From Bacteroidota bacterium (GTDB lineage Bacteria; Bacteroidota; Bacteroidia; J057; JADKCL01): a stretch of DNA of 64,000 nt. The stretch spans positions 48,936-112,935 of the forward strand of contig JANORP010000378.1 in assembly GCA_031415375.1 (NCBI GenBank), written 5' to 3'. The notes beneath the pieces were generated by a model. It saw only the letters and a program-made list of their open reading frames with translations. It had not been told where the DNA came from and did not search any database. The translations under genes and the position numbers were made by a program. Positions 9,304 through 58,846 of the stretch are shown one piece after another; the stretch's first letter is position 1, and each line of letters opens with the position of its first letter.

Positions 9304-9328
9304 GCGCGACCCGCTTGCTATGAAACTG

Positions 9329-9364
9329 AAGAGGCCCTGCATGCAAATGCGGGGCCTCTTTGTT
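9329..9364 (+). terminator. Rho-independent terminator after the adhesin gene
   Basis: The stem AAGAGGCCC (9329-9337) pairs with GGGCCTCTT (9352-9360) and is followed by TGTT. It lies 26 nt after the stop codon. Confidence 0.6.
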
Positions 9365-9447
9365 GGTGGATAGGGATCTGTTTTGCTTTTCAGCATTTCA
9401 TGCCAACGGTTCCTTTTGCAAGGCTTGCTTCCAGAAGGATCAGTCGG

Positions 9448-11256: not shown

Positions 11257-11548
11257 ACGTTGTTGTTCTTAGAATGGCAAAATCTAGTTGATTGTTGCGG
11301 GATTTACAAGGCAAAAAGGAATGTATAAAGGTATTTGGCCAACGCCCAAGCAAATTCCAGTTAAAGAGCCTCGCATTTCAATGATGCGTAAGCTGTCGTT
11401 GCTCCACAAAATGCCGACGCTTTAGAATTGTCACATTCCTCCAAACCAGCAACCCTTTCCTTCTTGAAATGGGAGCATTCTACCGAGGAAACTTCCGCTC
11501 CCGATGAAACCATTCCCCAAAATTCTCCCGACATTCGCCACAAGAAAG

Positions 11549-14032
11549 ATGCCCAGCACCGCCCTCCCCATCCAAGAAATCATCCCAGCGCTCCTGCGAG
11601 CGCTGGCAGACCACCCCATCGTCATCTTGGAGGCCCCGCCTGGCGCGGGCAAATCGACCGAATTGCCGCTGCACTTGCTGCATGCACCGTGGCTGCAAGG
11701 ACAGAAGATGCTCATGCTGCAACCACGCCGCCTTGCGGCGCGCGCGGTTGCGACGCGTCTTGCTGCACAGCTCGGCGAGCAAGTCGGGGAAACCGCCGGC
11801 TACCGCGTGCGCTTCGAACGCAAGATCAGCGCCCAGACCCGCATCGAGGTGCTCACTGAGGGCTTGCTCACCCGCCACATCCAGCAAGACAATGCCCTGG
11901 AGGGCATCGGGCTGCTGATCTTTGATGAATTCCACGAGCGCTCGCTCCATGCAGACCTCGCGCTGGTGCTCGCGCGGCAGGTGCAGGAGGTGCTGCGCGA
12001 CGACCTGCGCATCCTCATCATGTCGGCCACGCTCGACACCGCCGCGCTCTCGCAATTGCTGGGAAATGCACCCGTGATCACGAGTAAGGGCCGCCAACAT
12101 CCGATCGACATCCGCTACAGCCCCGTGCCCGATGGGCAGCGGCTCGAAGGCCATCTCGCCGCCACGGTGCGCAAGGCCCTCCGTGAGGACCAGGGCGACA
12201 TCCTCGCCTTCCTCCCCGGCGCCGCCGAAATCGGCCGCGTGGCCGAGGCATTGTATGAAAATCTGCCTGCTGGCATCCATCTGCACATGCTTTATGGCGA
12301 CCTGCCGCTGCCGCAGCAGCAGGAAGCCATCCTGCCCGACCCCGAAGGAAGGCGCAAGGTGGTGCTGGCCACGACGATTGCCGAGACCAGCCTCACGATC
12401 GAGGGCGTCCATGTAGTCATCGACGCTGGGCTGGCGCGGGTGCCGCGGTTTGACCCGCGCTCGGGCCTTACACGCCTAGAGACGCTCAGCGTGACCCGCG
12501 ACGCCGCCGACCAACGGGCAGGCCGCGCAGGTCGCCTCGGCCCCGGCGTGGCCTACCGCCTCTGGGCAGAGGGCAGCCACCAATACCTTCAAGCCCAACG
12601 CGAACCCGAGATCCTCCAAGCCGACCTCGCGCCCATGGCCCTCGAACTCGCCTATTGGGGTGTGACCGAGATGCGGGACTTGGGCTGGCCCACGCCGCCG
12701 CCTGTCGGGCATTTGAACCAAGCCTTGGAGCTGCTTACGCAGCTTGAAGCTTTGGAAAATGGCCGCATCACGGCCCGTGGCAAGGATTTGCTGCGCCTGC
12801 CGACCCATCCGAGGCTGGCGCACATGCTCGCGGAGGGCGAGGCATTGGGGCTCGCTGGCCTGGCCTGCGACATCGCGGCGCTGCTGGAGGAGCGCGACCC
12901 GCTCCCGCGCGAAGCGGGTGCAGACCTCTGCCTACGCCTGGACGCATTGCGGCTGCACCGCACGGGCGGCCGCTCGCAGGGCGAGAGCGCGGGCCTGCGC
13001 AAGCTGGAACAGCTCTCTCAGGCTTGGCGCAAGATCTTGCGCTGCAATGCCCATGATCGACCTGTCGAGGCCCAAGATGCTGGGCGCTTGCTCGCCGCCG
13101 CCTACCCCGAACGTGTTGCCAAGCGCGTCGGGCATCATCCGCCCACTTACCGCCTCAACAATGGCCGTCGGGGCAGCATCCAAGGGCACGACGCGCTCGC
13201 CGACCACGAGTGGCTGGCCATCGGGCTCATGGATGCTGGCTTGCAGGAAGGCAAGATTTTCCTCGCCGCGCCCTTGGATCCGCAGGATTTGAAGGGGCAC
13301 ATGAAGACACATTCAGTTTTGCATTGGGACCGGGCGCAGGGGCTGATCTTGGCGCAGACAGAGTTGCGGTTGGGCACGCTGCTGGTGTCGAGCAAGCCCG
13401 CACCCAAGCTCAGCGATGCGGAATGCGTGCCGATCTTGTGTGCAGCCATCCGCGAGCAGCCCGATTTGCTGGCTTGGATGGAGGCCGCGGTGGCTTGGCA
13501 GGCGCGTGTGTTGAGTCTGAGGTTGTGGCGACCGCAGGAAGATTGGCCGGATGTATCGACCGAGACGCTGCTGACGGATTTGGAGAAATGGCTGGGGCCC
13601 TACATCGGACATGTGCGGAAGCGGGATGATTTTAAGCGCGTGGACGTGCTGAGCTTGTTGTCGGCGCGCTTGCCCTGGGCGATGCAGCAGCAATTGGACG
13701 CCTTGGCCCCACAAAAGCTGGAGGTGCCGACGGGTTCACAGATTACCTTGGAATACTTTGCGGATGGCCGTGCGCCGATCTTGGCGGTACGCTTGCAGGA
13801 GATGTTTGGGCAGATGGACACACCGACGGTGAATCAGGGCCGCAATGCCGTCTTGATCCATTTGCTGTCACCCGCATACCGTCCCTGTGCCGTGACCCAA
13901 GACCTCCGCAGCTTCTGGATGAATGCGTATGCCGATACCCGCAAAGACCTGCGGGGCCGCTACCCTAAACACAGCTGGCCCGAAAACCCGCTCACCGCAG
14001 AGGCCGTGCGCGGCGTGAAGCGAAAATCCTGA
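11549..14032 (+). CDS. hrpB: ATP-dependent RNA helicase HrpB (DEAH-box)
   Basis: Walker A 'EAPPGAGKST', 'DEFHERS' (a DExH box), 'SATL' and 'TTIAETSLTIEGV', plus the long HrpB-type C-terminal domain. The start was moved to ATG 11549 (MPSTALPIQEIIP...), which is the typical HrpB N-terminus. The track start at 11504 remains possible. Confidence 0.9.
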   Translation: MPSTALPIQEIIPALLRALADHPIVILEAPPGAGKSTELPLHLLHAPWLQGQKMLMLQPRRLAARAVATRLAAQLGEQVGETAGYRVRFERKISAQTRIEVLTEGLLTRHIQQDNALEGIGLLIFDEFHERSLHADLALVLARQVQEVLRDDLRILIMSATLDTAALSQLLGNAPVITSKGRQHPIDIRYSPVPDGQRLEGHLAATVRKALREDQGDILAFLPGAAEIGRVAEALYENLPAGIHLHMLYGDLPLPQQQEAILPDPEGRRKVVLATTIAETSLTIEGVHVVIDAGLARVPRFDPRSGLTRLETLSVTRDAADQRAGRAGRLGPGVAYRLWAEGSHQYLQAQREPEILQADLAPMALELAYWGVTEMRDLGWPTPPPVGHLNQALELLTQLEALENGRITARGKDLLRLPTHPRLAHMLAEGEALGLAGLACDIAALLEERDPLPREAGADLCLRLDALRLHRTGGRSQGESAGLRKLEQLSQAWRKILRCNAHDRPVEAQDAGRLLAAAYPERVAKRVGHHPPTYRLNNGRRGSIQGHDALADHEWLAIGLMDAGLQEGKIFLAAPLDPQDLKGHMKTHSVLHWDRAQGLILAQTELRLGTLLVSSKPAPKLSDAECVPILCAAIREQPDLLAWMEAAVAWQARVLSLRLWRPQEDWPDVSTETLLTDLEKWLGPYIGHVRKRDDFKRVDVLSLLSARLPWAMQQQLDALAPQKLEVPTGSQITLEYFADGRAPILAVRLQEMFGQMDTPTVNQGRNAVLIHLLSPAYRPCAVTQDLRSFWMNAYADTRKDLRGRYPKHSWPENPLTAEAVRGVKRKS

Positions 14033-14312
14033 CAAATCACCTCTTTTCACAATTGTCTCTGCAAGCGTAGTTGCAAAATTATATTGTCCAGTGGCTCCGG
14101 AATGTGGCGGCATGTGCGCTGTCAATGGCGGATCATACAACCACTTCCCAAAATATGGGCCGTGTAATGCTCAAATACTTCATTCAATTCTTACATATAT
14201 CATTTGTACATATTCAACATTTAGCAAATCATGTTTGTAATAATTAGCTATATTAGAGCTTGTTAGGTAATAGATAGGATCGGAGATTTAAACACGTTTA
14301 AATTAATGCAGT

Positions 14313-15968
14313 ATGTCCAAAATTTCATTGGCTGGGTTTTCATTGCTCTTATTCTTGTGCGCGCTAGGGATCAAAGCACAATCAACCCAAGTGTTGCCCG
14401 TGGGTGATCATGGGCAATCGCGAGAGGCATACGACTCGCCCAGCGGTGCCAGGCGAGGCCATCAATTGCAAGAGCCGCTCATGCTGCTCCCGCCAGGCAA
14501 CGACAATTGCGCCTCGGCAATCGCACTCACTCCAGGTGCAGCCTGCATTACAGGCACCTCCAACGGCGCGAGCCTACAAGGTGGGGAGTATGTGTGCATC
14601 AGTGGCGGTGGTGGCGTCTCTGAAGAAACGGTATGGTACCGTTTCACGGCGACCAATACATCGATGGTCCTAGGAGTTGTGCTCACAAATTCCACCAACT
14701 GTGCGACAGTATTGGCGGTTTACGGTCCATTCGCGCCAGCCGGAGGCTGCCTTCCAGGTGCTGGCAACCAGATTCTTTGCCAAAATATGGGCCTCATCGA
14801 CCCTGGTTTCCACCCTTTGCTCACTGGCCTTGTCATCGGGCAAAGCTACCTCGTGCAAGTACAGGGCAATAATTGCGGCGGCGGCAACGATCGCTTTGTC
14901 AATTTTTGCATCAGCATCAATACCGTTTCTGCTAACAATAGCGCAGGCTCTGCTGCGGTGATCAACAATTGCGGCGTCGCCTTCACTGGCGGTACCACCG
15001 GCGGCCACTATGCGAATGGCACTTCTATCGGCGCCAACAACCTCGACAACAATGTCGCTACGAGCATCACAGGTGCCTCCGAGGTCGGCGACGACGTGAC
15101 CTTTGTGATCAACAATGTCTCCTGGTTCACATTCTGCAATGGCAACCTCAGCAGCTGCAATTGGAGCATCTTGCTCAACAGCGTCACCAATTGCCTGCTG
15201 CCTGCCCCCAATGCCGGCGTGCAATCAGCAGTCTTCACAGGCACACCCGCTGCCTTGGTCAATGTCGCCATCAGCCCAAGCAACATTCCGCCGGGAGGCA
15301 GTTTTGCCTCGGGCACCTTTGCGGTCGGGGCTGGGCAGTGTGCCTATGTGATGGTCGATGGCTTTGCCGGAGACGAATGCAACTACAACCTTACGCTCAC
15401 CAATGTTTCCTGTGCCTGCATCGTGCTGCCCATCGAGCTGGCCTATTTCGCAGGCCGCAATTTGGCCGATCAAGTGCATTTGGATTGGGGCATGGCATCG
15501 CAGGAAGGCTTGCAAGCCTTCGACATCGCCCGCAGCGCCGATGGCCACCATTTCGAGCAATTGATGCAAGGCATTGCGGCAGTCGTGCAAGCCGACCACC
15601 GCTACGTCGTCGCCGACAAGGATCCCTTGCCAGGTTGGAACTACTATCGCCTGAGTGTCGTGGACCATGATGGCAATACCATGGTCTTGAACACGGTAGC
15701 CGTTTATCGACAGCAGGGCGCCGGTCTCGATGTATTGATCAGCGCGCAGCAAGATCAAATGCAGCTCGACATCACAGGGTCCGATGAAGGAACAGCCACG
15801 CTCAGCGTCACGAATCTCCAGGGCCAGCAAGTGCTGCAACAGGCAACAACCCTTGAAAGCGGCAGCTCACGCTTACACGTCGAGATCCCCGGTCTCGCAC
15901 AGGGGATGTATGTGCTCAGCCTCACACAAGGCAGTCACAGCGTTTCCAAGAAGTTCGTGCGGAACTGA
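14313..15968 (+). CDS. Secreted protein of unknown function with T9SS C-terminal sorting domain
   Basis: Signal peptide 'MSKISLAGFSLLLFLCALGIKAQ'. C-terminal tail 'ATLSVTNLQGQQVL...GMYVLSLTQGSHSVSKKFVRN'. A 280-bp AT-rich region lies upstream. Confidence 0.75.
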   Translation: MSKISLAGFSLLLFLCALGIKAQSTQVLPVGDHGQSREAYDSPSGARRGHQLQEPLMLLPPGNDNCASAIALTPGAACITGTSNGASLQGGEYVCISGGGGVSEETVWYRFTATNTSMVLGVVLTNSTNCATVLAVYGPFAPAGGCLPGAGNQILCQNMGLIDPGFHPLLTGLVIGQSYLVQVQGNNCGGGNDRFVNFCISINTVSANNSAGSAAVINNCGVAFTGGTTGGHYANGTSIGANNLDNNVATSITGASEVGDDVTFVINNVSWFTFCNGNLSSCNWSILLNSVTNCLLPAPNAGVQSAVFTGTPAALVNVAISPSNIPPGGSFASGTFAVGAGQCAYVMVDGFAGDECNYNLTLTNVSCACIVLPIELAYFAGRNLADQVHLDWGMASQEGLQAFDIARSADGHHFEQLMQGIAAVVQADHRYVVADKDPLPGWNYYRLSVVDHDGNTMVLNTVAVYRQQGAGLDVLISAQQDQMQLDITGSDEGTATLSVTNLQGQQVLQQATTLESGSSRLHVEIPGLAQGMYVLSLTQGSHSVSKKFVRN

Positions 15969-43724: not shown

Positions 43725-46700
43725 TTACGAGTTCTCTGGCGTGACGACAGTCACCCATTTACCGGGGATTCTTGCGGAGATGGAATTGTCATACATCGCT
43801 TCTACATACACCGTTGGCAGGTAAAACTTACCGAGGTAACTGGCATTCAACAAAATCCGGAAGGTCTTCTCATTTTCCTCGCTCTTGCGGGTGGGGTAGG
43901 CCCAAGGATACCGCGCTTTTTGCCCTGGTGAACCCAAGTCAAAGTAGGTAAAGACCCTGTCGTCGCGGATGTCTTGGTAGTCGGGCTGCGCAATGGCCTT
44001 TTCGAAACCCGTGCCATCCATGCGTGTATTGTGAATTTCCCAACCCGAGGGGAAGATCTGCGTGAGCGCCAATTCGTCGAGGTCGCCCTTGGTGCCGGGA
44101 TTCTTCATGGTAATCTCGGCTACAAAGTCAGTCCCCTGCTCCAGCGTCGTGGGGTCGAGCGGCGCACCTTGCATGTCAAAATAATTGACGGCCAGGCTCA
44201 CATGATTTTGGCTGGCATCTTGGTCGCCCTTGGCGGGGATGCCCTCGGCGATCACCCTTGCAAAGAGGATGCCCGTGCCTTTGTTTTTGAGCTCGATGCT
44301 GCTTTGGGTACCATGGCCGATGGCGAGATCGATCTGCGCAATGGGCTTGGCACTGCTCCCATCCACCCAGTTGCCGCCGTTGATGCGGTAGGCATATTCC
44401 ATCTTGCTGTTTTGGCCTTGGCTCAGGCCAGCATATTTGGCCATCGCGATGAGGCAGTAGCCGGTGGTCTGCGTGCTCATCCACTCGTCTTTGGAGAGGG
44501 CAGTGGAGACCTTTTTGCTCAGTTCGGCCCCGCGCACCCGATTGCCGATGATGCCGATGCATTCCAAAATGATGGCTTGGTCGCGGATGTCGTTGCCGTA
44601 GGTGAAGCATTGCTCTTGGTATTTGGGCACCGCGATCGCCAAGTCCTTGCTCAGGCGCACAGCCGTCTCGGGCTGCCCTGCAAGCTTGTAGGCAGCAGCC
44701 AAGCGCCACTGCGCGACATTGTCGAGGCCGGGGGTTTCCCGCAAGCGGTTCATCGCGCCCAGCTCTGGCGAGCCCGCCAAGGCCAGCAGGTACAAGCGGT
44801 CACCTTGGATCAATTGCCCTGCGCGGGCAGTGGCCGACCAATTTTTGGCCGCTTTTTTCTGAAAGGCTATCCACTTCGTGAGAAAGGTCTGCGAGACGCG
44901 GTAGCCCTTGTTTTTGGCTTCCACGATGAAATTTCCCGCGTAGTTGGTTCCCCATTCATCGACCTCACCCGTGCCCGGCCAGTAGGAAAGCCCGCCGCTC
45001 GCCTGCTGGAAGGTCTCCAGGCGATCCAGTCCCGCTCGGATGTTTTTGTCGATTTGCTGCTGCATGCCAGCGGGCATGTCGATCAAGTTGGAGACATAGA
45101 GCTGCGGAAAGACCGAGGATGTGGTCTGCTCCACGCAGCCATGTGGGTATTCCAGCAGATATTTCAGGCGCTTGCCGAGGTTGATCGGCGGAATCGTGCT
45201 GAGCTCCAAAGTGCCTTTGTTGGTGCCGACCATGCCGGGATAGGCCACGCTTTGGGTCCAGGCTTGATTGGCATCGACGGCTTTTTCGGTCACGTTCACG
45301 ACCTTGGGATTGGGGTTGCGCACATCGATGTCGATGTGGTAGATGGCCACCTCGCTGCCGCTACGCGCGGTCACCTTGACCGTGCCCTTGCCGATGCGCT
45401 CCTTGACCGCGAGCTCAAAACTCACGAGTTCATCGCCAGGTCGGGCAAAGCTGAGCGATTTGGTCTTGGGGCCGTTGATGGTGAAGATGTCGCTGGCATC
45501 GAGGGTCACATTCACATCCTTCACATGATTTTCCATTGCAAACACCGTCACAGGCAGACGCAGCTCCTCGCCTGGACCGAGCACGCGGGGCAGTGTGCCC
45601 AATACCATGAGGGGTTTGCGCACCCTGCTCGATTTTTCAGATGAGCCGTATGCTGAGCCGTTGCGGGCCACGACCATCGTGCGCACGGCACCGACATAGT
45701 TGGGCATCATGAAGCTGTGCTTTTTGGTTTCGCCGGGCTTGAGGCTGAATGGCCCCATGAATTTCACCACAGGCCGAAAGCGGTTTTGCTTGCTGCCCTC
45801 CTTGGGGGCCATGCCGTCGTCACCACCGATGCCGAGCAATTTTGTGAGGTCGGCACCATAGGCGCCGATGACCTTGTCATACAAGTCCCAGGTCTTGACG
45901 TCGAGCGCCTCGCGGGCATAGAAGCTGGCCCAGGGATTGGGGGTCTCAAAACGCGTGAGATCCAGTAGGCCCTCATCGACCACAGCGACGGTATAGGTCA
46001 TTGCCTGCCCAGTCGCTTCACTCACGCCTACATCGACGCGCTCCATGGGCGCGAGCACGTCGCCCACAATTATTTTGGGCTTCAATTCCGTCTTGGGGTC
46101 GGTGATCTCGATCGGGATCACGCCATACATACGCATGGGCAAGTCATTCACGGTTTGGGCATGGGGTTGGATGAGGCTCACGTGGGCGTAAATGTTGGGG
46201 GCCATCTCGGCGGTAGCCGGGAAGGTATAGGAGGCGGCATCCAAGCCATTGCTCTCGACCCAGTGGGTGCTGATGACCTTAGCACCCGATTCGAGGCTCA
46301 CGAGTGCACGGCCGGCCTTGCCGGTAGGTATGGTCAGGGTTACATTCTCCCCGACCTTGTAGTTTTCCTTGTCGGCGCTGAATGTGAGCATCGTCGCGCC
46401 GCCAGGGTTGTCCTTCTGGGATCGCCCAGCCCAACCTGGCCAGTCGATATAGACGACTTGCCCCGTGCAGTGGCCACCCTCGTCACAGGCGCGCACCATG
46501 TAGCGGCCCCATGCGGGATACTTGACATTGAATTTCCAAGTGCCCTCGCCGTTGCGCACGCTGATCGTGTCTTTGCTCACCTGCTCTTGGTAAAATTTCT
46601 CGTTGTAGGTCGTCTCGCTATTGGCGGTTTGGTCCCACCACCATTTCCAATCGAGCTTGTACAAAGTCATCTCGACCTTGCGTTCGCCCTTGGGATTGCC

Positions 46701-49379
46701 ATCGGCATCGACGGTGACGACCTGCACTTTGTGGTCGATGTCGGTGAGGATCATGCCGCGCGCCTTGTCGCCCTTGGGGATCTTGATGCCCACAAAGCGG
46801 TCATAAGGGTAATAGGGCAGACTAAAGCGGTCGGTGGAGAATGCGCCACCAGGCTCGAAGACTTTGGTCACGAAGTTGGCGTTGAGTTTTCCCGGCGCAT
46901 TTCCACTGAGTGCGATTTTGAGGGGAATTTTGGCGATGCCATCCTCATCGACCTTGCCTTCAAAGATCGTCTGGCGCTCTGCGTCAAATTTGCGCACGGG
47001 GTCGTCAAATTCATAGTCTGCATACCGCTTGAAGCTGGTAGGCGTGGATGTGAGGGCGACACTTACGTCGGCAGCGAGGTTTTTGGCGATGGCGCCATGC
47101 AGCCATTGCACCTCTAGCTTGCCCTCCATGTTTTCCATTTCCTTGGAGAGAAATTCTTTGCCAAAGTCGATCTTGATCTTGAGGCGGTTGGGCATCACCG
47201 TCTCGATCTTGATCGTCTTGTCAAAGCTTGCGCCGCCGACATCGACCCGCAGATTGTAATTTCCGGTAGGGGCATTGTCTGCGGTGGCGGTTTGGTAGGT
47301 ATAGACGCCATTGACATGGCTGGTCTTGATACTTTTGTTCACGAGCTGCCCGAGGGAGTTGGTCAGGGTGAATGTGACAGGGTGATCTGCGGGCAATGAG
47401 CTCAACTCATCCTCCAACATGAAGGTGCTGAAAATCGTGTCGCCGGGTCGCCAGACGCCGCGCTCGCCATAGATAAAGCCCTTCACGCCTTTGTAGTAGC
47501 GCTGCCCGCTGATGTCAAATTTGCTCAAGGAGAGTGCGTAGCCATCGCCCAGCTTCAGGTATCCCCGCTGATTGCCTTGCTTGGCCACGATCACAAAGGG
47601 CACGATATCGACATCTGCCGTGGCGATGCCCTCGCTATTGGTACTGAGGCGCTTGAGGACTTGGCGTTGGTAATCGTAGATCTCGATGTCCACGCCGCCG
47701 AGGGGCGCGGTGGTGTGCAAATCATTGACGGCGATCGTCATCGTGCCATCGGTGCCACGCTTGGCGATGATGCCGAGGTCGCTTGCGAGGATGTTGCGGC
47801 TTGCACCACGGCTTTCGTAGGTGTAGTAGGCCTTGTGGCAAGGATTGTCGCGGTTGTCCCAGGTATCGCCATAGTCGGTGTCGTCATAGTATTCCCAATA
47901 GCTGCTTTCATCGCCATTGTCGCTCCAAGCGCCTTCTTCTTCGGCAGGCTTCTTCTTCGATTCGGATTCCCCGGCAGCCTCGGCCTCTGCTTCACAAGTA
48001 TAGATGGAGTGCTCCTTGCTAAAATTGACTGTGACGCGGTAGATGGCACCGGGCTCGGAATTGATGAGGCTGCCCAGGTCGATGATGTGACGGTTCCATT
48101 GGTGCAGGTTCAGGGACTTGTCGCCGTCGAGGCGCACGGTGCTGCGGTGCACGACCTTGCCTACGCGCTGCAATTCGCGGTCGCCCTCGAGGTCATTGAC
48201 TTGGAGGAATTGGAGGATGTTGTTTTCATAGATCTTCATGATCTCGAGATCGACGGCCTTGAGGCTCACGGCCTCAAATGCAAAGGGGAGCTGTGCACCA
48301 GCGCGGGGCAGGATGTTGCCATTGCCAGCAATGCGCACCTCTGGCTTGAGTTCTTCAAATTGAATGTCGAAGGTCTTGCCTTCCTTGAGCTTGTGGCCGA
48401 GGATGTTTTGCACGCCCGGCGATACCGTAAGCGTGTGCTCGCCGGTGGTACGCACAGCGGGAAAGACCTTTACGTCATTGCCTTCGACGGTATAGCGCAG
48501 CCGCATGTCGCCGAGGCGGATGAGGCCATTGAGGTCTTGTGCCTTGCGGATTGGGTCGCTGAATGTGAGCACGACATATTGGTCGGGATCGTTGTAGGTT
48601 TTGTATTCCATTACCGCAAATTCGCCGAGGGCTGGAATGCGTACCTCCGTTTTGCCTTCCTTGTCGATGCCCAAGGCATCGCCATCCCAAGAGATGGTGA
48701 CCATCGAGGCCGACCCGCCACGGCGCAGGCTATCCACCCTGAAGGTATGCTCGCGCCCATCAAGGCTATGCGACCACTTTACACGAAATTGGTCGTCGTC
48801 TTGCTCGGCCGTCAGCACTTTTTCGACAAGTTCTGGAAACTCATAGTCGGCCGTGGTGAGCGTGCCGTTGAGCGCTTGCCAGATGAGTTTTTGTTTGTCG
48901 AGGGTCTCGATGCCGAGCACGCTCACTTCAAAATTTTGCTGCTCGGTCTCAAATTGGAACGGGAATGTCTGCAATTTGTCTTCAAGGCCCGTGACAAATT
49001 TTCCCAATTCAAAGGTCGCTGTGTAAAATTGAGCGGTCGGCATGGGCTTGCTGGACTCAAATTGCAAGGTGCGGGCATCGATCCAAATGGCTTTGCCCTC
49101 TAGCTCAGGCTCAAACGTGAAGGGGTTCTCGCTGAGTGCAACGCCGATCTGATCGTCCTTGACGGCGTTCTCATTGAGTCGCACCTTGATCGTGGACTGT
49201 CGAGAGATCTTGCCTGTCGTGTAGGCCCCAATGTAGGGCGCAAAAGCTTCGTCAAATTTGTAATCGTGCGTCACTTGCTTCTTGCTGCAAGCGATCAGCA
49301 GTGTGAGACAAAGCACTGCGAGAAGTGTTTTGCTGAGGCTGGGAGGGTTAAAAATCTTCATGGGATTCGGTATTGGCAA
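43725..49379 (-). CDS. Bacterial alpha-2-macroglobulin family lipoprotein (1,884 aa)
   Basis: Lipobox 'LTLLIAC'. Thioester motif 'GCVEQ' in 'LEYPHGCVEQTTSS'. The size, the MG-domain architecture and the conserved synteny with pbpC all fit. Confidence 0.9.
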   Translation of the reverse strand: MPIPNPMKIFNPPSLSKTLLAVLCLTLLIACSKKQVTHDYKFDEAFAPYIGAYTTGKISRQSTIKVRLNENAVKDDQIGVALSENPFTFEPELEGKAIWIDARTLQFESSKPMPTAQFYTATFELGKFVTGLEDKLQTFPFQFETEQQNFEVSVLGIETLDKQKLIWQALNGTLTTADYEFPELVEKVLTAEQDDDQFRVKWSHSLDGREHTFRVDSLRRGGSASMVTISWDGDALGIDKEGKTEVRIPALGEFAVMEYKTYNDPDQYVVLTFSDPIRKAQDLNGLIRLGDMRLRYTVEGNDVKVFPAVRTTGEHTLTVSPGVQNILGHKLKEGKTFDIQFEELKPEVRIAGNGNILPRAGAQLPFAFEAVSLKAVDLEIMKIYENNILQFLQVNDLEGDRELQRVGKVVHRSTVRLDGDKSLNLHQWNRHIIDLGSLINSEPGAIYRVTVNFSKEHSIYTCEAEAEAAGESESKKKPAEEEGAWSDNGDESSYWEYYDDTDYGDTWDNRDNPCHKAYYTYESRGASRNILASDLGIIAKRGTDGTMTIAVNDLHTTAPLGGVDIEIYDYQRQVLKRLSTNSEGIATADVDIVPFVIVAKQGNQRGYLKLGDGYALSLSKFDISGQRYYKGVKGFIYGERGVWRPGDTIFSTFMLEDELSSLPADHPVTFTLTNSLGQLVNKSIKTSHVNGVYTYQTATADNAPTGNYNLRVDVGGASFDKTIKIETVMPNRLKIKIDFGKEFLSKEMENMEGKLEVQWLHGAIAKNLAADVSVALTSTPTSFKRYADYEFDDPVRKFDAERQTIFEGKVDEDGIAKIPLKIALSGNAPGKLNANFVTKVFEPGGAFSTDRFSLPYYPYDRFVGIKIPKGDKARGMILTDIDHKVQVVTVDADGNPKGERKVEMTLYKLDWKWWWDQTANSETTYNEKFYQEQVSKDTISVRNGEGTWKFNVKYPAWGRYMVRACDEGGHCTGQVVYIDWPGWAGRSQKDNPGGATMLTFSADKENYKVGENVTLTIPTGKAGRALVSLESGAKVISTHWVESNGLDAASYTFPATAEMAPNIYAHVSLIQPHAQTVNDLPMRMYGVIPIEITDPKTELKPKIIVGDVLAPMERVDVGVSEATGQAMTYTVAVVDEGLLDLTRFETPNPWASFYAREALDVKTWDLYDKVIGAYGADLTKLLGIGGDDGMAPKEGSKQNRFRPVVKFMGPFSLKPGETKKHSFMMPNYVGAVRTMVVARNGSAYGSSEKSSRVRKPLMVLGTLPRVLGPGEELRLPVTVFAMENHVKDVNVTLDASDIFTINGPKTKSLSFARPGDELVSFELAVKERIGKGTVKVTARSGSEVAIYHIDIDVRNPNPKVVNVTEKAVDANQAWTQSVAYPGMVGTNKGTLELSTIPPINLGKRLKYLLEYPHGCVEQTTSSVFPQLYVSNLIDMPAGMQQQIDKNIRAGLDRLETFQQASGGLSYWPGTGEVDEWGTNYAGNFIVEAKNKGYRVSQTFLTKWIAFQKKAAKNWSATARAGQLIQGDRLYLLALAGSPELGAMNRLRETPGLDNVAQWRLAAAYKLAGQPETAVRLSKDLAIAVPKYQEQCFTYGNDIRDQAIILECIGIIGNRVRGAELSKKVSTALSKDEWMSTQTTGYCLIAMAKYAGLSQGQNSKMEYAYRINGGNWVDGSSAKPIAQIDLAIGHGTQSSIELKNKGTGILFARVIAEGIPAKGDQDASQNHVSLAVNYFDMQGAPLDPTTLEQGTDFVAEITMKNPGTKGDLDELALTQIFPSGWEIHNTRMDGTGFEKAIAQPDYQDIRDDRVFTYFDLGSPGQKARYPWAYPTRKSEENEKTFRILLNASYLGKFYLPTVYVEAMYDNSISARIPGKWVTVVTPENS

Positions 49380-52483: not shown

Positions 52484-53377
52484 TCAAAACAAGGTCTGGA
52501 TCCCGCTTTGACTGCTCACGTACGCCCCAAATTTGCGCATGGTCTCATAGAAATCGTCGTATTTGGGTGTGGTGCGGAGCTTTTTCATCCATTCCTCGGG
52601 AATGGCATCACTGCCCATTGCGACCCCTGCGATTTGCCCGGCGATGGAGCAATTGGTGTCGGTATCGCCACCTGCAGCCACGATTTCCTTCATCATGCTT
52701 TGAATGCCGATGGTCGGGGCCTGTTGCGCCGCAAAGAGTGCCAATGGCACTGAGTCCACGACATAGCCACTGCTGCCAAACTTCTTGCCAATGTCACGAA
52801 TGCGGAGGCCCGGATGCTGCGCGATCGCATCGAGGCGGTCGCGCACGCGGGAGTCGGGCAGTACTTTGATGATGGCAGGGATGAAATTTTGCTGCTGATT
52901 TTGAATGAGACGGATCGCCCATACCACCGCCAAGGCACCCACATAGGCATCTGCGTTGTGGTGCGTGATGCGGCACACGTTTTCCAGGAGCATGCGGTCA
53001 TCCTCCTTTTTGGGGTCGAGTAAAAACGCGAGGGGCGCGATGCGCATCGCCGCGCCATTGCCAGCCGACATCTCACCCTTGGCGCCTACTTGACTCCAAT
53101 TGCCGCCCCCAACCAACTCCACCAAAGCCTTCAAGGTCGATGCCCCAAGGCCCGTGAGCCGACGGTCGCGGTACCATCGCCGAAAGGTCTGCGAAAGGTG
53201 TTCGGGATCGACGCTGCCCTTCTCCATGATCGACTCGCAGGTCGCCATCGAGAGCTGCGTATCGTCGGTAAAAAACCACGGCGCATCGCCAGATGGGATG
53301 TCTGATTGCTCATACTTAGAGCCATAAGCGTCGCCGAGGGCTCCCATCAGCAGACAAGATTTGACCTTTTCGTCCAT
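52484..53377 (-). CDS. ADP-ribosylglycohydrolase family protein
   Basis: Family motifs present: 'GALGDAYG', 'FTDDTQL' and 'GGDTDTNCSIAGQIAG'. ATG 53377 is preferred over GTG 53395. Confidence 0.85.
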   Translation of the reverse strand: MDEKVKSCLLMGALGDAYGSKYEQSDIPSGDAPWFFTDDTQLSMATCESIMEKGSVDPEHLSQTFRRWYRDRRLTGLGASTLKALVELVGGGNWSQVGAKGEMSAGNGAAMRIAPLAFLLDPKKEDDRMLLENVCRITHHNADAYVGALAVVWAIRLIQNQQQNFIPAIIKVLPDSRVRDRLDAIAQHPGLRIRDIGKKFGSSGYVVDSVPLALFAAQQAPTIGIQSMMKEIVAAGGDTDTNCSIAGQIAGVAMGSDAIPEEWMKKLRTTPKYDDFYETMRKFGAYVSSQSGIQTLF

Positions 53378-53766
53378 TTTTTCGCGCTTCAGCACGCCAT
53401 CATAGATAAGGTGGCGCTTGAGTAGGCATCAAAAATAGCCTTCTCAACCCAGACCACATTGCCCATTTTTCCTCAAACCTTGGCGGGCCTGACCTATGGA
53501 GTAGGCGATGAGGCCTTCTCTGTCTTCAATGAATAGCTAGGAAATCAGGTTTCTAGGAACTGTCATGGGCCTTACATTGGTTGGTGAATTTTTTGTTTAA
53601 AGCTATTTTTTCGCGCCTTATACCCCTTTTAGGGCGTATTGTGATTATTTTCTTGGAGGCAAAAACTTTGTAATTACTTATATAACAATTGATTAAATAT
53701 TGTTTTTGAATCATTGATTTTCCAGCTATTTTTCAGGTACTTTGATGCGGTATTATTTTCTTAAAT

Positions 53767-53949
53767 ATGATAACTGAAAACGTGGGTCAAGTAAGCAATG
53801 AAGCGGTTGCCAGTCAATCGGCCGTCCTAGTGTTAGATGCCAAAATGGTGCCTGGTCCGGTGTTGAGGAGATTAATCGAAGAGGTAAGGCATGATCGCCA
53901 AAACAACATTACGGCCTATGATCGCCTACACAATCGTCACAATCGTTGA
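53767..53949 (+). CDS. Candidate RiPP precursor peptide (60 aa, or 34 aa from Met27)
   Basis: MITENVGQVSNEAVASQSAVLVLDAKMVPGPVLRRLIEEVRHDRQNNITAYDRLHNRHNR. Its stop codon overlaps the first possible start of the radical SAM gene. A 370-bp AT-rich region lies upstream. Confidence 0.55.
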   Translation: MITENVGQVSNEAVASQSAVLVLDAKMVPGPVLRRLIEEVRHDRQNNITAYDRLHNRHNR

Positions 53950-55100
53950 TTGCTGTGGATGAGGAATGCACTCGGGTGGATTTAGATACTGTGCTACTGA
54001 AAGTTGCGAGTCGGTGCAACATTGATTGTACCTATTGTTACGTGTACCAAATGGGTGATGATCAGTGGACTCGTCTGGGTAAATTTATGTCCAATGAGAC
54101 AATTGAGGCCGTATGCACTTCACTTCAAGCTCTTTCAAAAAGTCAAGCTTCCCGATTTAGCGTTGTACTTCATGGTGGGGAACCGCTCCTTCTAGGAGCC
54201 TCAAGGTTGAAATACCTATTGGAGTCTTTGCGAAATGTTTTGCCTTTGGAGTATCCGATTAGCATCCAGACAAATGGGATCTTGATCACGACCGAGCTTT
54301 TGGATATTTGTTCCACCTTTCGTGCTAGCTTGTCGGTGAGCATCGATGGACCAAGGCAGCTCCACGATGCTCAGAGAATTAAGTTTGATGGTGGCGGTAC
54401 TTTTGATGAAGTTTTGCGTGGGATCGAGATGCTCGAGTCACACTCAGATGCCTTGTTTTTATATGCAGGGCTTTTGGCGGTAGTTGACCCTTGCTCGGAC
54501 CCTCAAGAGGTGTACACCTTCTTCAAAACAATCGGAGCGCCAAGCGTGGACTTCCTCTATAAGGATGGAAACCATTGCAGACTGCCCCTTTCCAAGGCCT
54601 TTTTCGAGTCAGTTGAATACGGCTCATGGATGGCTAGCCTCTTCAACATTTACATTTCCGACCCAGATCCGATCCGTATCCGCATTTTGGATGATATGAC
54701 AAAAGCAATCTTGGGTGGCCTCATCTCCAAGGAAGGAATGGGCGTTTCAGATTTTGGAATCCTCATCATCGATACTGATGGGACGATTGCCAAAAATGAT
54801 ACATTGAAAAGCTCCTTCAATGGTGCGGATCGGTTTTCCGTTTCTCGGAATATCAGGGATACTGTCTTGGGTGAATTTTTGAAATCCGACGAGTTTCAAG
54901 CTTACCGCCGCATGCAACGGCCATCTTGCCTTCAGTGTTCTCTTTGCCCGGAATTGAAAGTCTGCGGCGGAGGGATGACCTTGCATCGTTGGAGCGATGA
55001 CAATGCTTTCAACAATCCTTCAATTTACTGCTCTGATCAGCTTTACCTGATCGGAATGATTCGGCAGCAACTTGCTCAATATCAGATTGTTTATGCCTGA
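53946..55100 (+). CDS. Radical SAM/SPASM-domain peptide maturase (FxsB-like)
   Basis: 'RCNIDCTYCY' is the CX3CX2C cluster. The C-terminal 'CLQCSLCPELKVCGGG...IYCSDQ' is a SPASM-type auxiliary-cluster motif. The start is TTG 53946 or GTG 53955. Confidence 0.85.
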   Translation: MIAVDEECTRVDLDTVLLKVASRCNIDCTYCYVYQMGDDQWTRLGKFMSNETIEAVCTSLQALSKSQASRFSVVLHGGEPLLLGASRLKYLLESLRNVLPLEYPISIQTNGILITTELLDICSTFRASLSVSIDGPRQLHDAQRIKFDGGGTFDEVLRGIEMLESHSDALFLYAGLLAVVDPCSDPQEVYTFFKTIGAPSVDFLYKDGNHCRLPLSKAFFESVEYGSWMASLFNIYISDPDPIRIRILDDMTKAILGGLISKEGMGVSDFGILIIDTDGTIAKNDTLKSSFNGADRFSVSRNIRDTVLGEFLKSDEFQAYRRMQRPSCLQCSLCPELKVCGGGMTLHRWSDDNAFNNPSIYCSDQLYLIGMIRQQLAQYQIVYA

Positions 55101-55686
55101 AACCTCTTGCATTGATTTTTCCAAGATTCAACGGGAAAGCAATCCATTTAGTCATTTCTACCTGACCTCTGTGTTACGAGAGCATCTGGACAAAGAACTC
55201 TTCGAATGGTTGGAGCAGACTGACGCTTGGCAATCAGTCGAAACCGATTTTTATGAACAGTATGAGTTTTCGCTTCAAAGTGTCGCGCTTCCAGCTCGCT
55301 TGTCTTGCCTCGTAGCCGAGAAGACGATTCGGGAAACACGGCAAACAATGCAGGAGATATTTTTGGTAGAGAAGCTTGATTTGGTGGGAATTGTTGCGCA
55401 CAAATTGGTAGAAGGACAGCACATTGGAATTCACAACGACTTCATTGAGGGTGAAGAGACGCATCGCCTAGTGATACAGATCAACCCCCATTGGACCGAA
55501 AGCAATGGTGGGTACCTCATGTTATTCAACTCTCAGGACGTGGAGGATGTTTCAAAAGTGATCTCCCCGATCAACAATACTGCCTTTGGCTTTGAAATAT
55601 CAAAGGATTCTCACCACGCAGTTTCCAAAATCTATGGCCTCCCTAGGTACAGCATTGTCTACACGTTCCGGTTGCGCGACAAATGA
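55093..55686 (+). CDS. 2OG-Fe(II) oxygenase superfamily protein (prolyl-4-hydroxylase-like)
   Basis: 'HIGIHNDF' is the HxD motif, 'GGYLMLF' follows, 'SHHAVSKI' supplies the distal His, and 'PRYSIVYTF' supplies the Arg. ATG 55093 overlaps the rSAM stop by 8 nt. Confidence 0.75.
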   Translation: MPETSCIDFSKIQRESNPFSHFYLTSVLREHLDKELFEWLEQTDAWQSVETDFYEQYEFSLQSVALPARLSCLVAEKTIRETRQTMQEIFLVEKLDLVGIVAHKLVEGQHIGIHNDFIEGEETHRLVIQINPHWTESNGGYLMLFNSQDVEDVSKVISPINNTAFGFEISKDSHHAVSKIYGLPRYSIVYTFRLRDK

Positions 55687-56537
55687 ACCTTACCCAGTTG
55701 ATCCATCGATATCTCGCAGCCCCTTTTCCTATTTGGAACCTTGAGCTGACAGAAACGCTAGTCCAGAAAAAATGGATGGAATTGGAAGGAATCGAAATTC
55801 AAAGCCGAGAGAACTACTCTACAGCTGCTAGCTATCATCAAAAAGGGATGTCTGTAGGAGTCAGATCGCAACTACAGCATGCTAGCCAACCAAAAATGTA
55901 CCAGGAAGCCCCAAATGCTGAACTGCTTGGTGTCTTCTATGACAAACATGGACTAGAGCTACTGAGTGAGCAGGATTTGAAGGAAAGTGATGCGATCGTT
56001 AAGCTTGAGGAGTCAATCGCGATGCTAGATTTGGTGCCGCATCTTGGCGCTTGTGTGGCCCTTTTGGTGAGGTCAATACAAGTTTTGAAGCAAGAGGGTC
56101 CTCAGACTGACCTCAGTTACAGTCATCCAAAGATTCCTTTCTCGATTTTCGTTTCGGTTTGTGAGGATCGCTCCATGATATCTACACTGCGTGTAGCAGA
56201 GTCCATTCTTCATGAAGCGATGCACCTATTTCTCACGCTCATAGAGGATGAGGCCCCTCTGGTGAAGGATGACGCTATTGGGAAGTTCTATTCTCCATGG
56301 AAGCACGAAAACAGGAATGCGCGGGGAATTTTGCACGGAGCTTTCGTTTTTAGGGCCATTTGGGAGTTTTGCGAGCGTTTGCGCAATGATGACCTTGCCC
56401 CCCAAGAAAAGAAGTATGTGATCAACCGTCAAACGACGATTTCAGAAGAACTGTCGTTACTGCCAGAGTTTAGTGACAATTCGGACCTCACTAGAGATGG
56501 GGCCACCCTGATAGCAAGTCTATTGCCATTGAGCTGA
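55683..56537 (+). CDS. HExxH-motif peptide-modification protein (aKG-HExxH / TIGR04267-like)
   Basis: Contains 'ESILHEAMHLFLTLIED'. An ATGA overlap joins it to the upstream oxygenase gene. The ~280-aa size and the position next to an rSAM/SPASM gene fit the family. Confidence 0.7.
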   Translation: MNLTQLIHRYLAAPFPIWNLELTETLVQKKWMELEGIEIQSRENYSTAASYHQKGMSVGVRSQLQHASQPKMYQEAPNAELLGVFYDKHGLELLSEQDLKESDAIVKLEESIAMLDLVPHLGACVALLVRSIQVLKQEGPQTDLSYSHPKIPFSIFVSVCEDRSMISTLRVAESILHEAMHLFLTLIEDEAPLVKDDAIGKFYSPWKHENRNARGILHGAFVFRAIWEFCERLRNDDLAPQEKKYVINRQTTISEELSLLPEFSDNSDLTRDGATLIASLLPLS

Positions 56538-57240
56538 ACTCGGATTCTGGCTTCATTGATTGCAGCAAACCAATTCTGGTAGGCAAAATTATCGGATCGT
56601 CTTTATCGATATGAAATCGAGCAAGAAGCGCTTCGATCCACTGCATCTCCTTCAAAAGTCTAAAATGGAGCCTTTGACGAGCAATTACGAAGCTCTCATC
56701 ACGTAACCCTAGAATCTTAATGGTTTGGCGACCTCGAAAAGTCCTGCCTTCAATTTCCCAACCTCTAAAACGGATATGGCATCTAGGATCTTCTTTGGAT
56801 GGGTTAATGAGTATTGGCTCTTCCGCATCGGCATCATGGTGGCTCTTCATTCTCTTGGTTGAATCAACCAATGGAAAGAAGTTCCTTTTCTTACTCGTGT
56901 TTGGCAACGGTTTGCAAAGCAGTAAATTCTCCCAGCTGTAAGCCAGCCAGTAGTACCCTGGAGTTAGTGATCCTCCCTTTCTCCATGGCCATTCGTCAAT
57001 TCTGCCTTTTGGACGATAGTGCTCAACGGGCGGCAAATCTCCAACGAAGTAGGCCTCGCTGAAACAACATTTGTTGTGCTGACAATGCTTCAATGCTTCG
57101 ACAACGGCTTTGATCTTATAGGTACGATAAAACTTAAGTTTTCTGCCTCCTTTGTCGTATTCCAATTTCAACTCATCAGTTCTTGGCTTGCCCAATTTTT
57201 CCAATTTTGGTGGACACGGGTCTTTGAATATTTGGATCAT
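56491..57240 (-). CDS. ptuB: Septu PtuB-like HNH nuclease (TIGR02646-like)
   Basis: 'NKCCFSEAYFVGDLPPVEHYRPKG' and 'YSWENLLLCKPLPNTSKKRNFFP' align with the HNH core (His, then Asn). An ATGA overlap at 57237-57240 joins it to the upstream ATPase gene. Confidence 0.65.
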   Translation of the reverse strand: MIQIFKDPCPPKLEKLGKPRTDELKLEYDKGGRKLKFYRTYKIKAVVEALKHCQHNKCCFSEAYFVGDLPPVEHYRPKGRIDEWPWRKGGSLTPGYYWLAYSWENLLLCKPLPNTSKKRNFFPLVDSTKRMKSHHDADAEEPILINPSKEDPRCHIRFRGWEIEGRTFRGRQTIKILGLRDESFVIARQRLHFRLLKEMQWIEALLARFHIDKDDPIILPTRIGLLQSMKPESEFSSMAIDLLSGWPHL

Positions 57241-58652
57241 TTCATTAGCCCTCGTGCTTTGAGTTGTTCTGTGGCAGCTTGGATTTGATCCAAAAATCGC
57301 TGATCCTCTTCGTTTTCGGCTACAGGAATTTCGACAAGTAATCTATCTAGTTCATCCAACCGAAGTCGATCCTCATCCGTTTTCGTATCCTGGTCAAGAA
57401 TTTCCCGCCGCTCCTGAATTAAACCCTCAATCTCGGGGCTTCTGTCACTCCCAAGTCCAAAAAGCTCACCTGTCGCAAACAGTCCAATGCGGCCACCTTT
57501 GATGACATACGGCTCACTGTCAATGATCACAACCCCGTCTTCTCGTCTAAGCACAACTAGGTTCTCCGACTCGGACGCCTGAGCCATAAAGGGGCTATGG
57601 GCAGTGCAGATAAATTGAGTATTCTTGAAATGATGTACCAATTTCTTTTTGAGCGATCGTTGCCAAGATGGATGCAAATGCAGATCAATCTCATCTACCA
57701 AGACAACAGCTGGCTCGTTAAGTGGCGAATCGCTATCACGATTTCGGAGTAACATTCGAAACGCGAGGTCGGCAATCCATGCAAACATGGTTTGATAACC
57801 AAGGCTGAGGGCTTGAAAGGGAACTAGCCCACTCGGCATCGCAATCTCCACCAATCGATCGTTTCGTTTGCCCTCCTTATAATATTCATTGACCGTTATT
57901 TTCTCTGGCGTTCCATCAAGATCTGGTAATAGGTCTGATAATACCTCTTTAACCTTCATGAAAAATCTTGTCGCTGGACCTTCTTCAGTGGTTCTAACTC
58001 TTTCGGCATTCGAATCGGAAAACAACTTGTAAAGTAGGTCCTCGGGATCAAACAACTCGTTGGAATTGGTTAACAGATTGGAGGCAGAGTCTTTGAGTAA
58101 TATTTCGCTTTCAAGATTGTTTACGCCTAAATGTCTATTTGCTGCGTAGGCAAATACATTCATGGACCCAAATTCAAGCAATTCCCCTGGATTCACGTCA
58201 TACTTTTCAAGTTCCCAGTTTTCAATTTCGAAAGAAATGGAATGCTCAGTTTGTTCTTTGTCAGTTGGTATTTCCCCAAGTCCGACGCCAAAGGACAGTG
58301 ATGATCCCACAAACGACTTGACAGTTGCCCCCACCATTGCAATTCTTTCCCAATCAGAATTGTTAGCCAGAACTTCGTCCATTTCTGGTTTTATCTTGAC
58401 GGGGCCTGAGTTAATTTTGGGGCCTGCGCTGTCACCGTCCTTCTTTGGTAACGCCTCAACGTCTGGCCTCATCCATGCCAAACACTTCAACAACGTCGTT
58501 TTTCCCATCCCATTGTCTCCAAGGATCAGCGTCCATCTGGCGATAGCCCCTTTTTCGTCGACAAGCTTCAATTGGCTTTCGCCAAGACAGTTGATATTCT
58601 TTACCTTCAGTGAGGTAAAATACATCGGGGTCACACTATTTTTTTCGTCCAT
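57237..58652 (-). CDS. ptuA: Septu PtuA-like AAA/ABC-type ATPase
   Basis: The N-terminal 'LKVKNINCLGE...WTLILGDNGMGKTTLLKCLAW' carries the Walker A motif. 'VVLVDEIDLHLHPSWQRSL...FICTAHSPF' carries the Walker B and D-loop region, in the AAA_15/21 style. Confidence 0.7.
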   Translation of the reverse strand: MDEKNSVTPMYFTSLKVKNINCLGESQLKLVDEKGAIARWTLILGDNGMGKTTLLKCLAWMRPDVEALPKKDGDSAGPKINSGPVKIKPEMDEVLANNSDWERIAMVGATVKSFVGSSLSFGVGLGEIPTDKEQTEHSISFEIENWELEKYDVNPGELLEFGSMNVFAYAANRHLGVNNLESEILLKDSASNLLTNSNELFDPEDLLYKLFSDSNAERVRTTEEGPATRFFMKVKEVLSDLLPDLDGTPEKITVNEYYKEGKRNDRLVEIAMPSGLVPFQALSLGYQTMFAWIADLAFRMLLRNRDSDSPLNEPAVVLVDEIDLHLHPSWQRSLKKKLVHHFKNTQFICTAHSPFMAQASESENLVVLRREDGVVIIDSEPYVIKGGRIGLFATGELFGLGSDRSPEIEGLIQERREILDQDTKTDEDRLRLDELDRLLVEIPVAENEEDQRFLDQIQAATEQLKARGLMK

Positions 58653-58807
58653 GTCCTAAAATTCATTTCATAAAATGTCCCCAAGTCCCAGTTTCAACCC
58701 TGGATCGAGATGGTCGGGTTCCTTGGGAAAGATAAGAAAGTTCGGCAAATGTGCCCAATCTCAACAAAACGATTTTGTCCGCTTTTTGCCCATTCCCTCC
58801 CATCTTT

Positions 58808-58846
58808 AAAAACAAAAGACTCGGCAGCGCATTACGCACTGCCGAG
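58808..58846 (-). terminator. Rho-independent terminator of infB
   Basis: The stem CTCGGCAG (58820-58827) pairs with CTGCCGAG (58839-58846). On the minus strand it is followed by TCTTTTGTTTTT. It lies 22 nt after the infB stop. Confidence 0.7.

Follow-up and report, generated by a model that had tools for sequence, protein, structure and literature searches.

The 64,000-nucleotide stretch of DNA analysed here (positions 48,936 to 112,935 of contig JANORP010000378.1; hereafter the window) carries a yhh operon, a set of four genes for a peptide that is made by the ribosome and modified after translation (a RiPP), and this operon is adjoined by a convergent pair of genes of the Septu defence system, ptuB and ptuA. 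The six genes fill a 5.3-kb island that is missing from a close relative, and the same two modules lie side by side in most related loci, so that the genetic linkage of Yhh with Septu is very probably under selection. This adjacency, here and in most relatives, suggests a role for the Yhh peptide in phage defence. Taken by itself the four-gene operon is ordinary, one more, fairly divergent, member of a characterised RiPP family; what gives the locus its importance is the Septu linkage. The DNA comes from an uncultured Bacteroidota represented by a metagenome-assembled genome; a Bacteroidota host had also been proposed in an earlier account drawn from the nucleotide sequence alone (the sequence-only reading). 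That account closed the operon at position 56537, a boundary that proved too narrow and missed the operon's conserved partner, the convergent Septu pair.

As determined by blastn comparison with a closely related strain (L157), whose NusA is identical to that of the window and whose ADP-ribosylglycohydrolase is 99% identical, the island has sharp borders. L157 positions 8999-14188 match window positions 63998-58808, and 14195-14934 match 53509-52770; in this relative 199 nt separate infB from the glycohydrolase gene that comes after it. The break points accordingly fall at window positions 58808 and 53509, with six bases in L157 (GGGGGG at the junction) standing in the island's place. Since L157 carries the empty site, the six genes were gained or lost as one unit, composed of a yhh operon half and a convergent ptuB/ptuA half (Table 1). 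The island has a GC content of about 45%, against about 56% in its flanks, and beyond the six genes it holds no further conserved small open reading frames (ORFs) or conserved intergenic DNA. At the junctions, neither a target-site duplication nor flanking direct or inverted repeats, a tRNA gene or an integrase gene was found. The insertion lies directly after the infB terminator, a 12-bp GC-rich hairpin with a T-run at 58820-58846 on the minus strand. The neighbouring ADP-ribosylglycohydrolase gene (52484-53395, minus strand) was considered as a pathway gene and rejected: it is high in GC and present at the L157 empty site, and hence belongs to the core genome, outside the RiPP pathway. An ADP-ribosylated triceptide has reportedly been described of late, a case not applicable to the window locus. 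A phage-borne module was rejected as well, as viral contigs held no YhhB relatives, just one weak 31% fragment.

Table 1. Features of the Yhh-Septu island in window coordinates, with the profile matches or comparisons on which each assignment is based (rSAM, radical S-adenosylmethionine; 2OG, 2-oxoglutarate; aKG, alpha-ketoglutarate).
Feature	Position	Strand	Basis and remarks
Six-gene low-GC island, 5,298 bp	53510..58807		Absent from closely related strain; blastn of L157
yhh operon leader/promoter region	53510..53766	+	AT-rich non-coding, inside island; GC 0.40-0.43
yhhA, precursor peptide, 60 aa	53767..53949	+	NF041705; same gene call in public record
yhhB, predicted rSAM/SPASM three-residue cyclophane synthase	53946..55100 (TTG) or GTG 53976	+	NF041707, PF04055
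yhhC, predicted 2OG-Fe(II) oxygenase, Asp/Asn beta-hydroxylase of family	55093..55686	+	NF041706, PF13640, PF13661
Predicted stand-alone aKG-HExxH-type peptide beta-hydroxylase	55683..56537	+	TIGR04267
ptuB, Septu HNH nuclease, 249 aa	56491..57240	-	PADLOC PDLC00339, 178 bits, full length
ptuA, Septu ABC-type ATPase, 471 aa	57237..58652	-	PADLOC PDLC00304, 392 bits, full length

The association of the two modules extends far beyond the window. A genome scan recovered 80 related loci, 55 of YhhB type (44-63% identity) and 25 that are FxsB-like (33-38%); with the window counted in, the YhhB set comprises 56 loci. All-against-all comparison of the ORFs in these 56 loci yielded, besides the precursor, five conserved families: YhhB (56 loci), YhhC (51), the HExxH protein (51), PtuB (38) and PtuA (38). 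As YhhC and the HExxH protein each occur in 51 of the 56 loci, the four-gene set is the usual form of a Yhh cluster. In 37 of the 56 loci the flanks contain PtuA together with PtuB, and in 35 of these 37 the distance between the pair and the operon runs from -46 to about +620 nt; of the two outliers, one is an artefact caused by a second PtuAB copy (L020) and the other a gap of about 1.85 kb (L052). The placement of the pair varies: convergent downstream in 17 loci, the window included, upstream in the same direction in 14, upstream divergent in 4 and downstream in the same direction in 2. In the last arrangement (L008 and L013) ptuA-ptuB follow the HExxH gene after 39-97 nt on the same strand, which looks like a single six-gene operon. 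Among the 19 loci in which the pair was not found, about 7 are truncated where their contig ends. PtuAB lies beside none of the 25 FxsB-like loci.

Carriers of the YhhB-type loci belong to Bacteroidota, Acidobacteriota, Chloroflexota, Pseudomonadota (alpha, beta and gamma), Actinomycetota, Ca. Entotheonella and Ca. Binatia, the linked loci spanning at least seven phyla, and include the cultured organisms Pedobacter miscanthi (L003), Hymenobacter sp. ISL-91 (L004), Bradyrhizobium ganzhouense (L021) and Novacetimonas pomaceti (L041). The P. miscanthi locus agrees with the window in its convergent overlap and in the two lost zinc cysteines of PtuB, with proteins that are 37-63% identical to those of the window island; as both features are kept at such identities, the Yhh-Septu pairing has survived deep divergence. 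In a Dehalococcoidia locus (L010) an insertion sequence with an rve integrase-core transposase (9316-10299, plus strand) separates the HExxH gene from ptuA, and the locus yielded no PtuB homologue; this looks like a disrupted Yhh-Septu unit. The literature searched, which included the DefensePredictor paper, contained no article joining Septu or PtuA with triceptide, SPASM or HExxH; this does not prove the linkage unpublished, as the primary Yhh and HExxH papers lay outside the search.

Reciprocally, an alignment of the Yhh-linked PtuAs was scanned against metagenome contigs, which revealed 12 PtuA relatives with Yhh genes next door. In a neighbour-joining tree built from 72 PtuAs, the 46 Yhh-linked ones all group together, while each of the seven PtuAs that lack Yhh over at least 2.5 kb on both sides falls into a sister group. 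Among the metagenome PtuAs taken alone, the best identity to the genome-derived linked proteins separates the two states perfectly, being at least 48% when Yhh is present and at most 45% when it is absent (U=63, p=9e-5). The grouping of Yhh-linked PtuA is real, its depth being not well resolved.

These data bear directly on the rival explanation that two independent, self-sufficient systems, a Yhh triceptide cluster and an ordinary Septu, merely travel together as adjacent cargo of a defence or mobile island, which we regard as a serious possibility, if on balance an improbable one. Defence islands gather unrelated systems, and several observations speak for independence and against a joint unit. 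The sister PtuAB group stands alone without Yhh, and about 12 Yhh loci with full flanks are devoid of PtuAB, so that neither module strictly needs the other; a Vibrio plasmid, too, carries yhhABC without PtuAB. The clean split between linked and unlinked PtuA receives a bootstrap value of just 41/100, and the linked proteins show no insertions or deletions specific to their clade, in contrast to retron-linked PtuA, two alignment columns being all that discriminates. The distances of YhhB and PtuA do correlate significantly (Mantel r=0.63, Spearman 0.26), but this correlation is confounded by host phylogeny and was not relied on. On the other side, adjacency is kept at 32-39% identity of PtuA and 44-63% identity of YhhB, across those phyla and four rearrangements, with gaps usually below 650 nt. 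An adjacency due to hitch-hiking is not expected to outlast such divergence and shuffling. Independence also sits poorly with the distinct sequence group formed by the linked PtuAs, with the operon-like layout of L008 and L013, and with the consistent absence of PtuAB from the FxsB-like loci.

We therefore favour, at roughly even odds in our judgement, the proposal that the six genes work as one phage-defence unit, borne on a horizontally acquired 5.3-kb island, with a modified peptide that stays in the cell. An intracellular location of the product would follow from the lack of any conserved exporter or protease. The modified peptide might act on or alongside PtuAB in the way that the multicopy single-stranded DNA (msDNA) of type I-A retrons controls PtuAB. 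Functional coupling of Yhh and Septu in defence, judged on its own, is about evenly balanced between true and false; that the modified peptide is a direct ligand of PtuAB appears unlikely. More specifically, the locus might encode a composite RiPP-Septu immune system in which an intracellular, cyclophane-cross-linked and hydroxylated peptide is the regulatory ligand or sensor of an ATPase-nuclease effector. The peptide would then activate this effector, or else keep it silent up to the moment of infection. We put this version forward as a tentative and rather improbable one.

The precedent for such an arrangement comes from retrons, which co-opt Septu and whose linked PtuA forms a cluster of its own (PMC12819146). 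Type I-A retrons (Ec78/Eco7) likewise link a Septu pair genetically with an upstream module whose product is an unusual macromolecule, and their partner-linked PtuA is likewise set apart from stand-alone PtuA (PMC12819146). By analogy, we hypothesise a retron-like control of PtuAB by the peptide. The window differs in that its partner module consists of a modified peptide and three enzymes instead of a reverse transcriptase, a non-coding RNA and msDNA, and in that Yhh-linked PtuA has no insertions comparable to those of the retron proteins. Identity with a type I-A retron was rejected, given that the island contains no reverse transcriptase ORF and no Rfam retron RNA. The window PtuA scores 134 bits against the PADLOC model ATPase_I-A and 392 bits against PtuA1.

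The chemistry of triceptides is well studied, and we know of no biological role assigned to them; for Septu, retrons are the one other accessory module known to draw on it. If the RiPP-Septu proposal is true, it would represent the first RiPP maturation pathway to act as control module for an effector of phage defence, and it would give triceptides a function. Should the coupling hold, genome miners would have to stop treating such clusters as antibiotic biosynthetic gene clusters, and catalogues of defence systems would have to add a RiPP-associated Septu subtype. As the six-gene block is gained or lost together, it offers a direct and cheap experiment on the role of a triceptide and on the co-option of Septu.

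A further explanation takes the Yhh product for a secreted antimicrobial or metal-binding peptide, with beta-hydroxy-Asp and His as ligands, and PtuAB for an addiction or stabilising module or a guard of the island. Secreted antibiotics and metallophores are common among RiPPs, the core abounds in His, Arg and hydroxylated Asp/Asn, and an MFS transporter is encoded near one locus (L049). Yet across the 56 loci no exporter, protease or immunity gene emerged as conserved from the ORF clustering, the 5.3-kb island accommodates nothing beyond its six genes, and the Septu-less loci adjoin intracellular defence or toxin-antitoxin genes, not transporters. Secretion is accordingly distinctly unlikely in our estimation, and the intracellular defence unit remains the reading that we prefer.

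The identity of the RiPP half was judged by the curated NCBIfam cut-offs, with which Pfam agrees at superfamily level. The rSAM enzyme scores 495.9 bits against the YhhB equivalog NF041707 (cut-off 445), aligned over residues 13-378, and matches PF04055. Both of its motifs given in the sequence-only reading are present, the cluster CNIDCTYC and the SPASM-like CLQCSLCPELKVCGGG, and the cysteines C14/C18/C21 and C321/C324/C330/C352 are invariant among homologues; the Pfam SPASM model reported no match to YhhB at E<=0.01. Among solved structures, YhhB matches the rSAM domain of ChlB (9gm3, E=8e-59). The oxygenase reaches 247.4 bits against the YhhC model NF041706 (cut-off 150), together with matches to PF13640 and PF13661; it contains the HND...HHAV...RYS pattern noted before, and its HxD...H...R residues are kept in at least 94% of 51 homologues. 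The fourth protein scores 83.4 bits against TIGR04267 (cut-off 40) and carries ILHEAMHLF, as had been read from its translation. Its residues H177, E178, H181, R211 and H218 are kept in at least 94% of 51 homologues, and it matches ChlH (8s5f, E=8e-12) such that HExxH and SPW..R..G.LH align. The HExxH protein of Yhh loci is covered by this domain model and has no Yhh-specific model.

The 60-residue precursor passes the profile of the YhhA family of cyclophane-containing RiPPs (NF041705) with 54.7 bits against a cut-off of 36. It combines the leader motif PVLRRLIEEVRHD with the core AYDRLHNRHNR, whose C-terminal part YDR-L-HNR-HNR is exactly the characterised Yhh substrate type. A small ORF with the core motif Y[DN]R-x-[HYF][NH]R-HNR, in some cases followed by a tail of 1-2 residues, occurs in all 56 YhhB loci, and most of these small ORFs have the leader motif LxRLIEEVRNE in common. 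The expectation that homologous loci would have a small ORF with a conserved C-terminus always preceding the rSAM gene was borne out for the C-terminus and not for the order: in four loci (L026, L029, L034 and L040) the precursor gene lies between yhhB and yhhC. Because this small ORF and its C-terminal motif occur in 56 of 56 loci and all four gene products score above their hidden Markov model (HMM) cut-offs, the yhh gene set is beyond chance.

Based on these profile scores, ORFs 1-4 almost certainly constitute a canonical Yhh-family triceptide operon. The HMM cut-offs thereby uphold the RiPP operon that the sequence-only reading had recognised, with a small precursor, an rSAM/SPASM enzyme, a 2OG-Fe(II) oxygenase and an HExxH hydroxylase, and equally its remark that the precursor lacks an FxSxx C-terminus, as the peptide ends in HNRHNR. 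Its assignment to an uncharacterised subclass of FxsB/FxsC-type systems with an extra P4H-like oxygenase has to be abandoned as extremely improbable. FxsB (TIGR04269) is indeed the second-best model of the rSAM enzyme, and the TIGR04267 HExxH domain family is common to Fxs systems. But the score of 293.4 bits is under the TIGR04269 cut-off of 370, on which account the locus is not an Fxs system, and the YhhA, YhhB and YhhC equivalogs are all passed. The Fxs-type loci of our scan (L057-L081), just 33-38% identical, contain neither YhhA nor full-length YhhC homologues, one partial YhhC-like match (L077) aside. The additional oxygenase is real as a 2OG enzyme; it is YhhC, a regular member of the Yhh family. 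Nor is the subclass uncharacterised, for the Yhh family is named, characterised and annotated by NCBI in Bacteroidota: among the 3,025 relatives obtained in a YhhB protein search at E<=1e-20, many are from this phylum (Mucilaginibacter, Pedobacter, Saprospiraceae) and already bear the name YhhB.

The window locus shares with the YhhA/YhhB/YhhC triceptide system (NF041705, NF041707, NF041706) the leader, the core type Y[DN]R-x-HNR-HNR and the gene order A-B-C. Its proteins diverge from those of the characterised Yhh system; they are singletons at 90% identity, and the nearest YhhB is 65-66% identical. The fused ChlB/ChlH system (Morishita et al., Nat Chem 2024; 8s5f, 9gm3) likewise couples a cyclophane-forming rSAM enzyme to an HExxH Fe/aKG hydroxylase, whereas in the window the two enzymes are separate proteins, a classical 2OG oxygenase is added and the precursor belongs to a different family. 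FxsA/FxsB/FxsC (TIGR04269, TIGR04267) resembles the window in its rSAM/SPASM enzyme with an HExxH partner and in its three-residue cyclophanes, and differs from it in that the window precursor is not of FxS type and Fxs loci have neither a full-length YhhC nor Septu neighbours.

According to passages of three articles (PMC11002830, PMC11499958 and PMC12186529), the chemistry of YhhB and YhhC was established by Sugiyama et al. 2022 (JACS). As described there in part, YhhB (WP_013448981.1) joins Tyr-C3 and His-C2 to the C-beta of Arg, giving rise to HNR cyclophanes (PMC11002830, PMC11499958), and YhhC forms L-erythro-beta-hydroxy-Asp on YhhB-modified YhhA (PMC12186529). For aKG-HExxH enzymes, a passage citing Morishita 2024 gives hydroxylation of Asp and His on a cyclophane scaffold that is already in place (PMC12636437). 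By equivalog-level homology we infer the same cyclophane and hydroxylation chemistry, shown for family members elsewhere, for the window locus. The 60-residue YhhA would be the substrate, and YhhB, with SAM and [4Fe-4S] clusters, would abstract hydrogen from the C-beta of Arg, the third residue of each motif. This carbon would then be bonded to Tyr C3 or His C2, so that three cyclophane rings could form at YDR, HNR and HNR. YhhC would hydroxylate the C-beta of the middle Asp, and the HExxH protein may be a second Fe/aKG beta-hydroxylase that acts on the already cyclised peptide, as judged by analogy with ChlH.

By its profile matches and motifs, the gene pair at 56491-58652 is a Septu defence pair, and from this gene identity phage resistance of the Septu type is predicted for the window locus. 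PtuA matches AAA_21 and AAA_15, finds PtuA (8ee4) and the ATPases of the retrons Ec78/Ec83 as its relatives in the PDB, and conserves the residues of Walker A (GDNGMGKTT) and Walker B (VLVDEIDLHLHP); the HNH motif of PtuB aligns with that of 68 homologues. The 3' end of ptuB overlaps the convergent HExxH gene by 47 nt. Full-length PADLOC matches of PtuA and PtuB, the Walker and HNH motifs and a 4-nt overlap of ptuA and ptuB (57237-57240 in the window) are likewise found in stand-alone Septu, from which the window pair departs by the membership of its PtuA in the Yhh-linked group and by the zinc finger of its PtuB. Window PtuB and that of P. miscanthi (8486-9226) read CCFSE and CKPLPN/CKTTIN where nearly all others have CCYCE and C..CN, so that two of the four cysteines of their zinc finger are gone. 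Both of these cysteine-poor proteins retain the catalytic residues EH and N. In the PtuB alignment, the loss of the zinc cysteines looks like a derived trait common to the Bacteroidota island.

Within the yhh operon, the ORF list and the raw sequence confirm the placement of all four ORFs on one strand, and two of the three gene junctions are exactly as first read: ATG 55093 of the oxygenase gene lies 8 nt inside the rSAM gene (stop 55098-55100), and ATGA at 55683-55686 joins the oxygenase and HExxH genes. The ORF list gives 55072 and 55093 as alternative starts for yhhC. At the peptide/rSAM junction, the TTGA at 53946-53949 is present, while the overlap itself is doubtful: the public gene call on identical DNA (L001, Logan SRR20217188; NCBI contig) starts the rSAM gene at GTG 53976, with a product of 374 aa. 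An exact look-up of the TTG-start protein gave no match, and the family profile NF041707 begins at residue 13 of the TTG ORF. In view of the public start and of this profile boundary, the yhhA-yhhB junction may be a gap of 26 nt.

Upstream of yhhA, the AT-rich region of about 370 bp that had been pointed out exists as 371 nt (53396-53766) with a GC content of about 40-43%, of which just 53510-53766 is island DNA. The fold of this leader region is no better than that of shuffled sequences (z-score -0.55), its DNA is not conserved among other Yhh loci, and an Rfam search of the non-coding parts of the island returned no riboswitch, retron or other RNA match. A sigma-70 promoter scan of the leader stayed at the level of shuffled sequence, such a scan being not informative for a Bacteroidota host.

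The Yhh loci without Septu sit among defence or toxin-antitoxin genes, encoding HipA, a STAND NTPase, a RelA/SpoT-domain protein, AbiEi and DUF2971. In two Methylococcaceae loci (L016, 8594-10078, and L017, 8596-9972, both on the minus strand) a protein of about 460-490 aa, with C-terminal HEAT repeats and an unannotated N-terminal part, occupies the convergent PtuB/PtuA position and may be an alternative partner; HipA adjoins it in L016. The conjugative plasmid p1 of Vibrio echinoideorum (L161, 5841-7705) has yhhA-yhhB-yhhC with neither the HExxH gene nor PtuAB and a recombinase gene instead, next to genes for a Ser/Thr kinase, a PP2C phosphatase, an AAA ATPase and DUF2971. Plasmids of Novosphingobium and Rhizobium (L162, 5980-8115, and L163, 5989-8136) encode a long YhhB of about 711 aa, probably an rSAM enzyme with an extra domain fused to it; GNAT and glycosyltransferase genes come after yhhB. 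A Piwi/SMEK pair lies by one of them and an AAA-ATPase/HNH pair near the other; they represent a second type of Yhh cluster, likewise in a defence context. Elsewhere in the window, two very long ORFs stand out, at 52-9303 on the plus strand (3,083 aa) and at 43725-49379 on the minus strand (1,884 aa).

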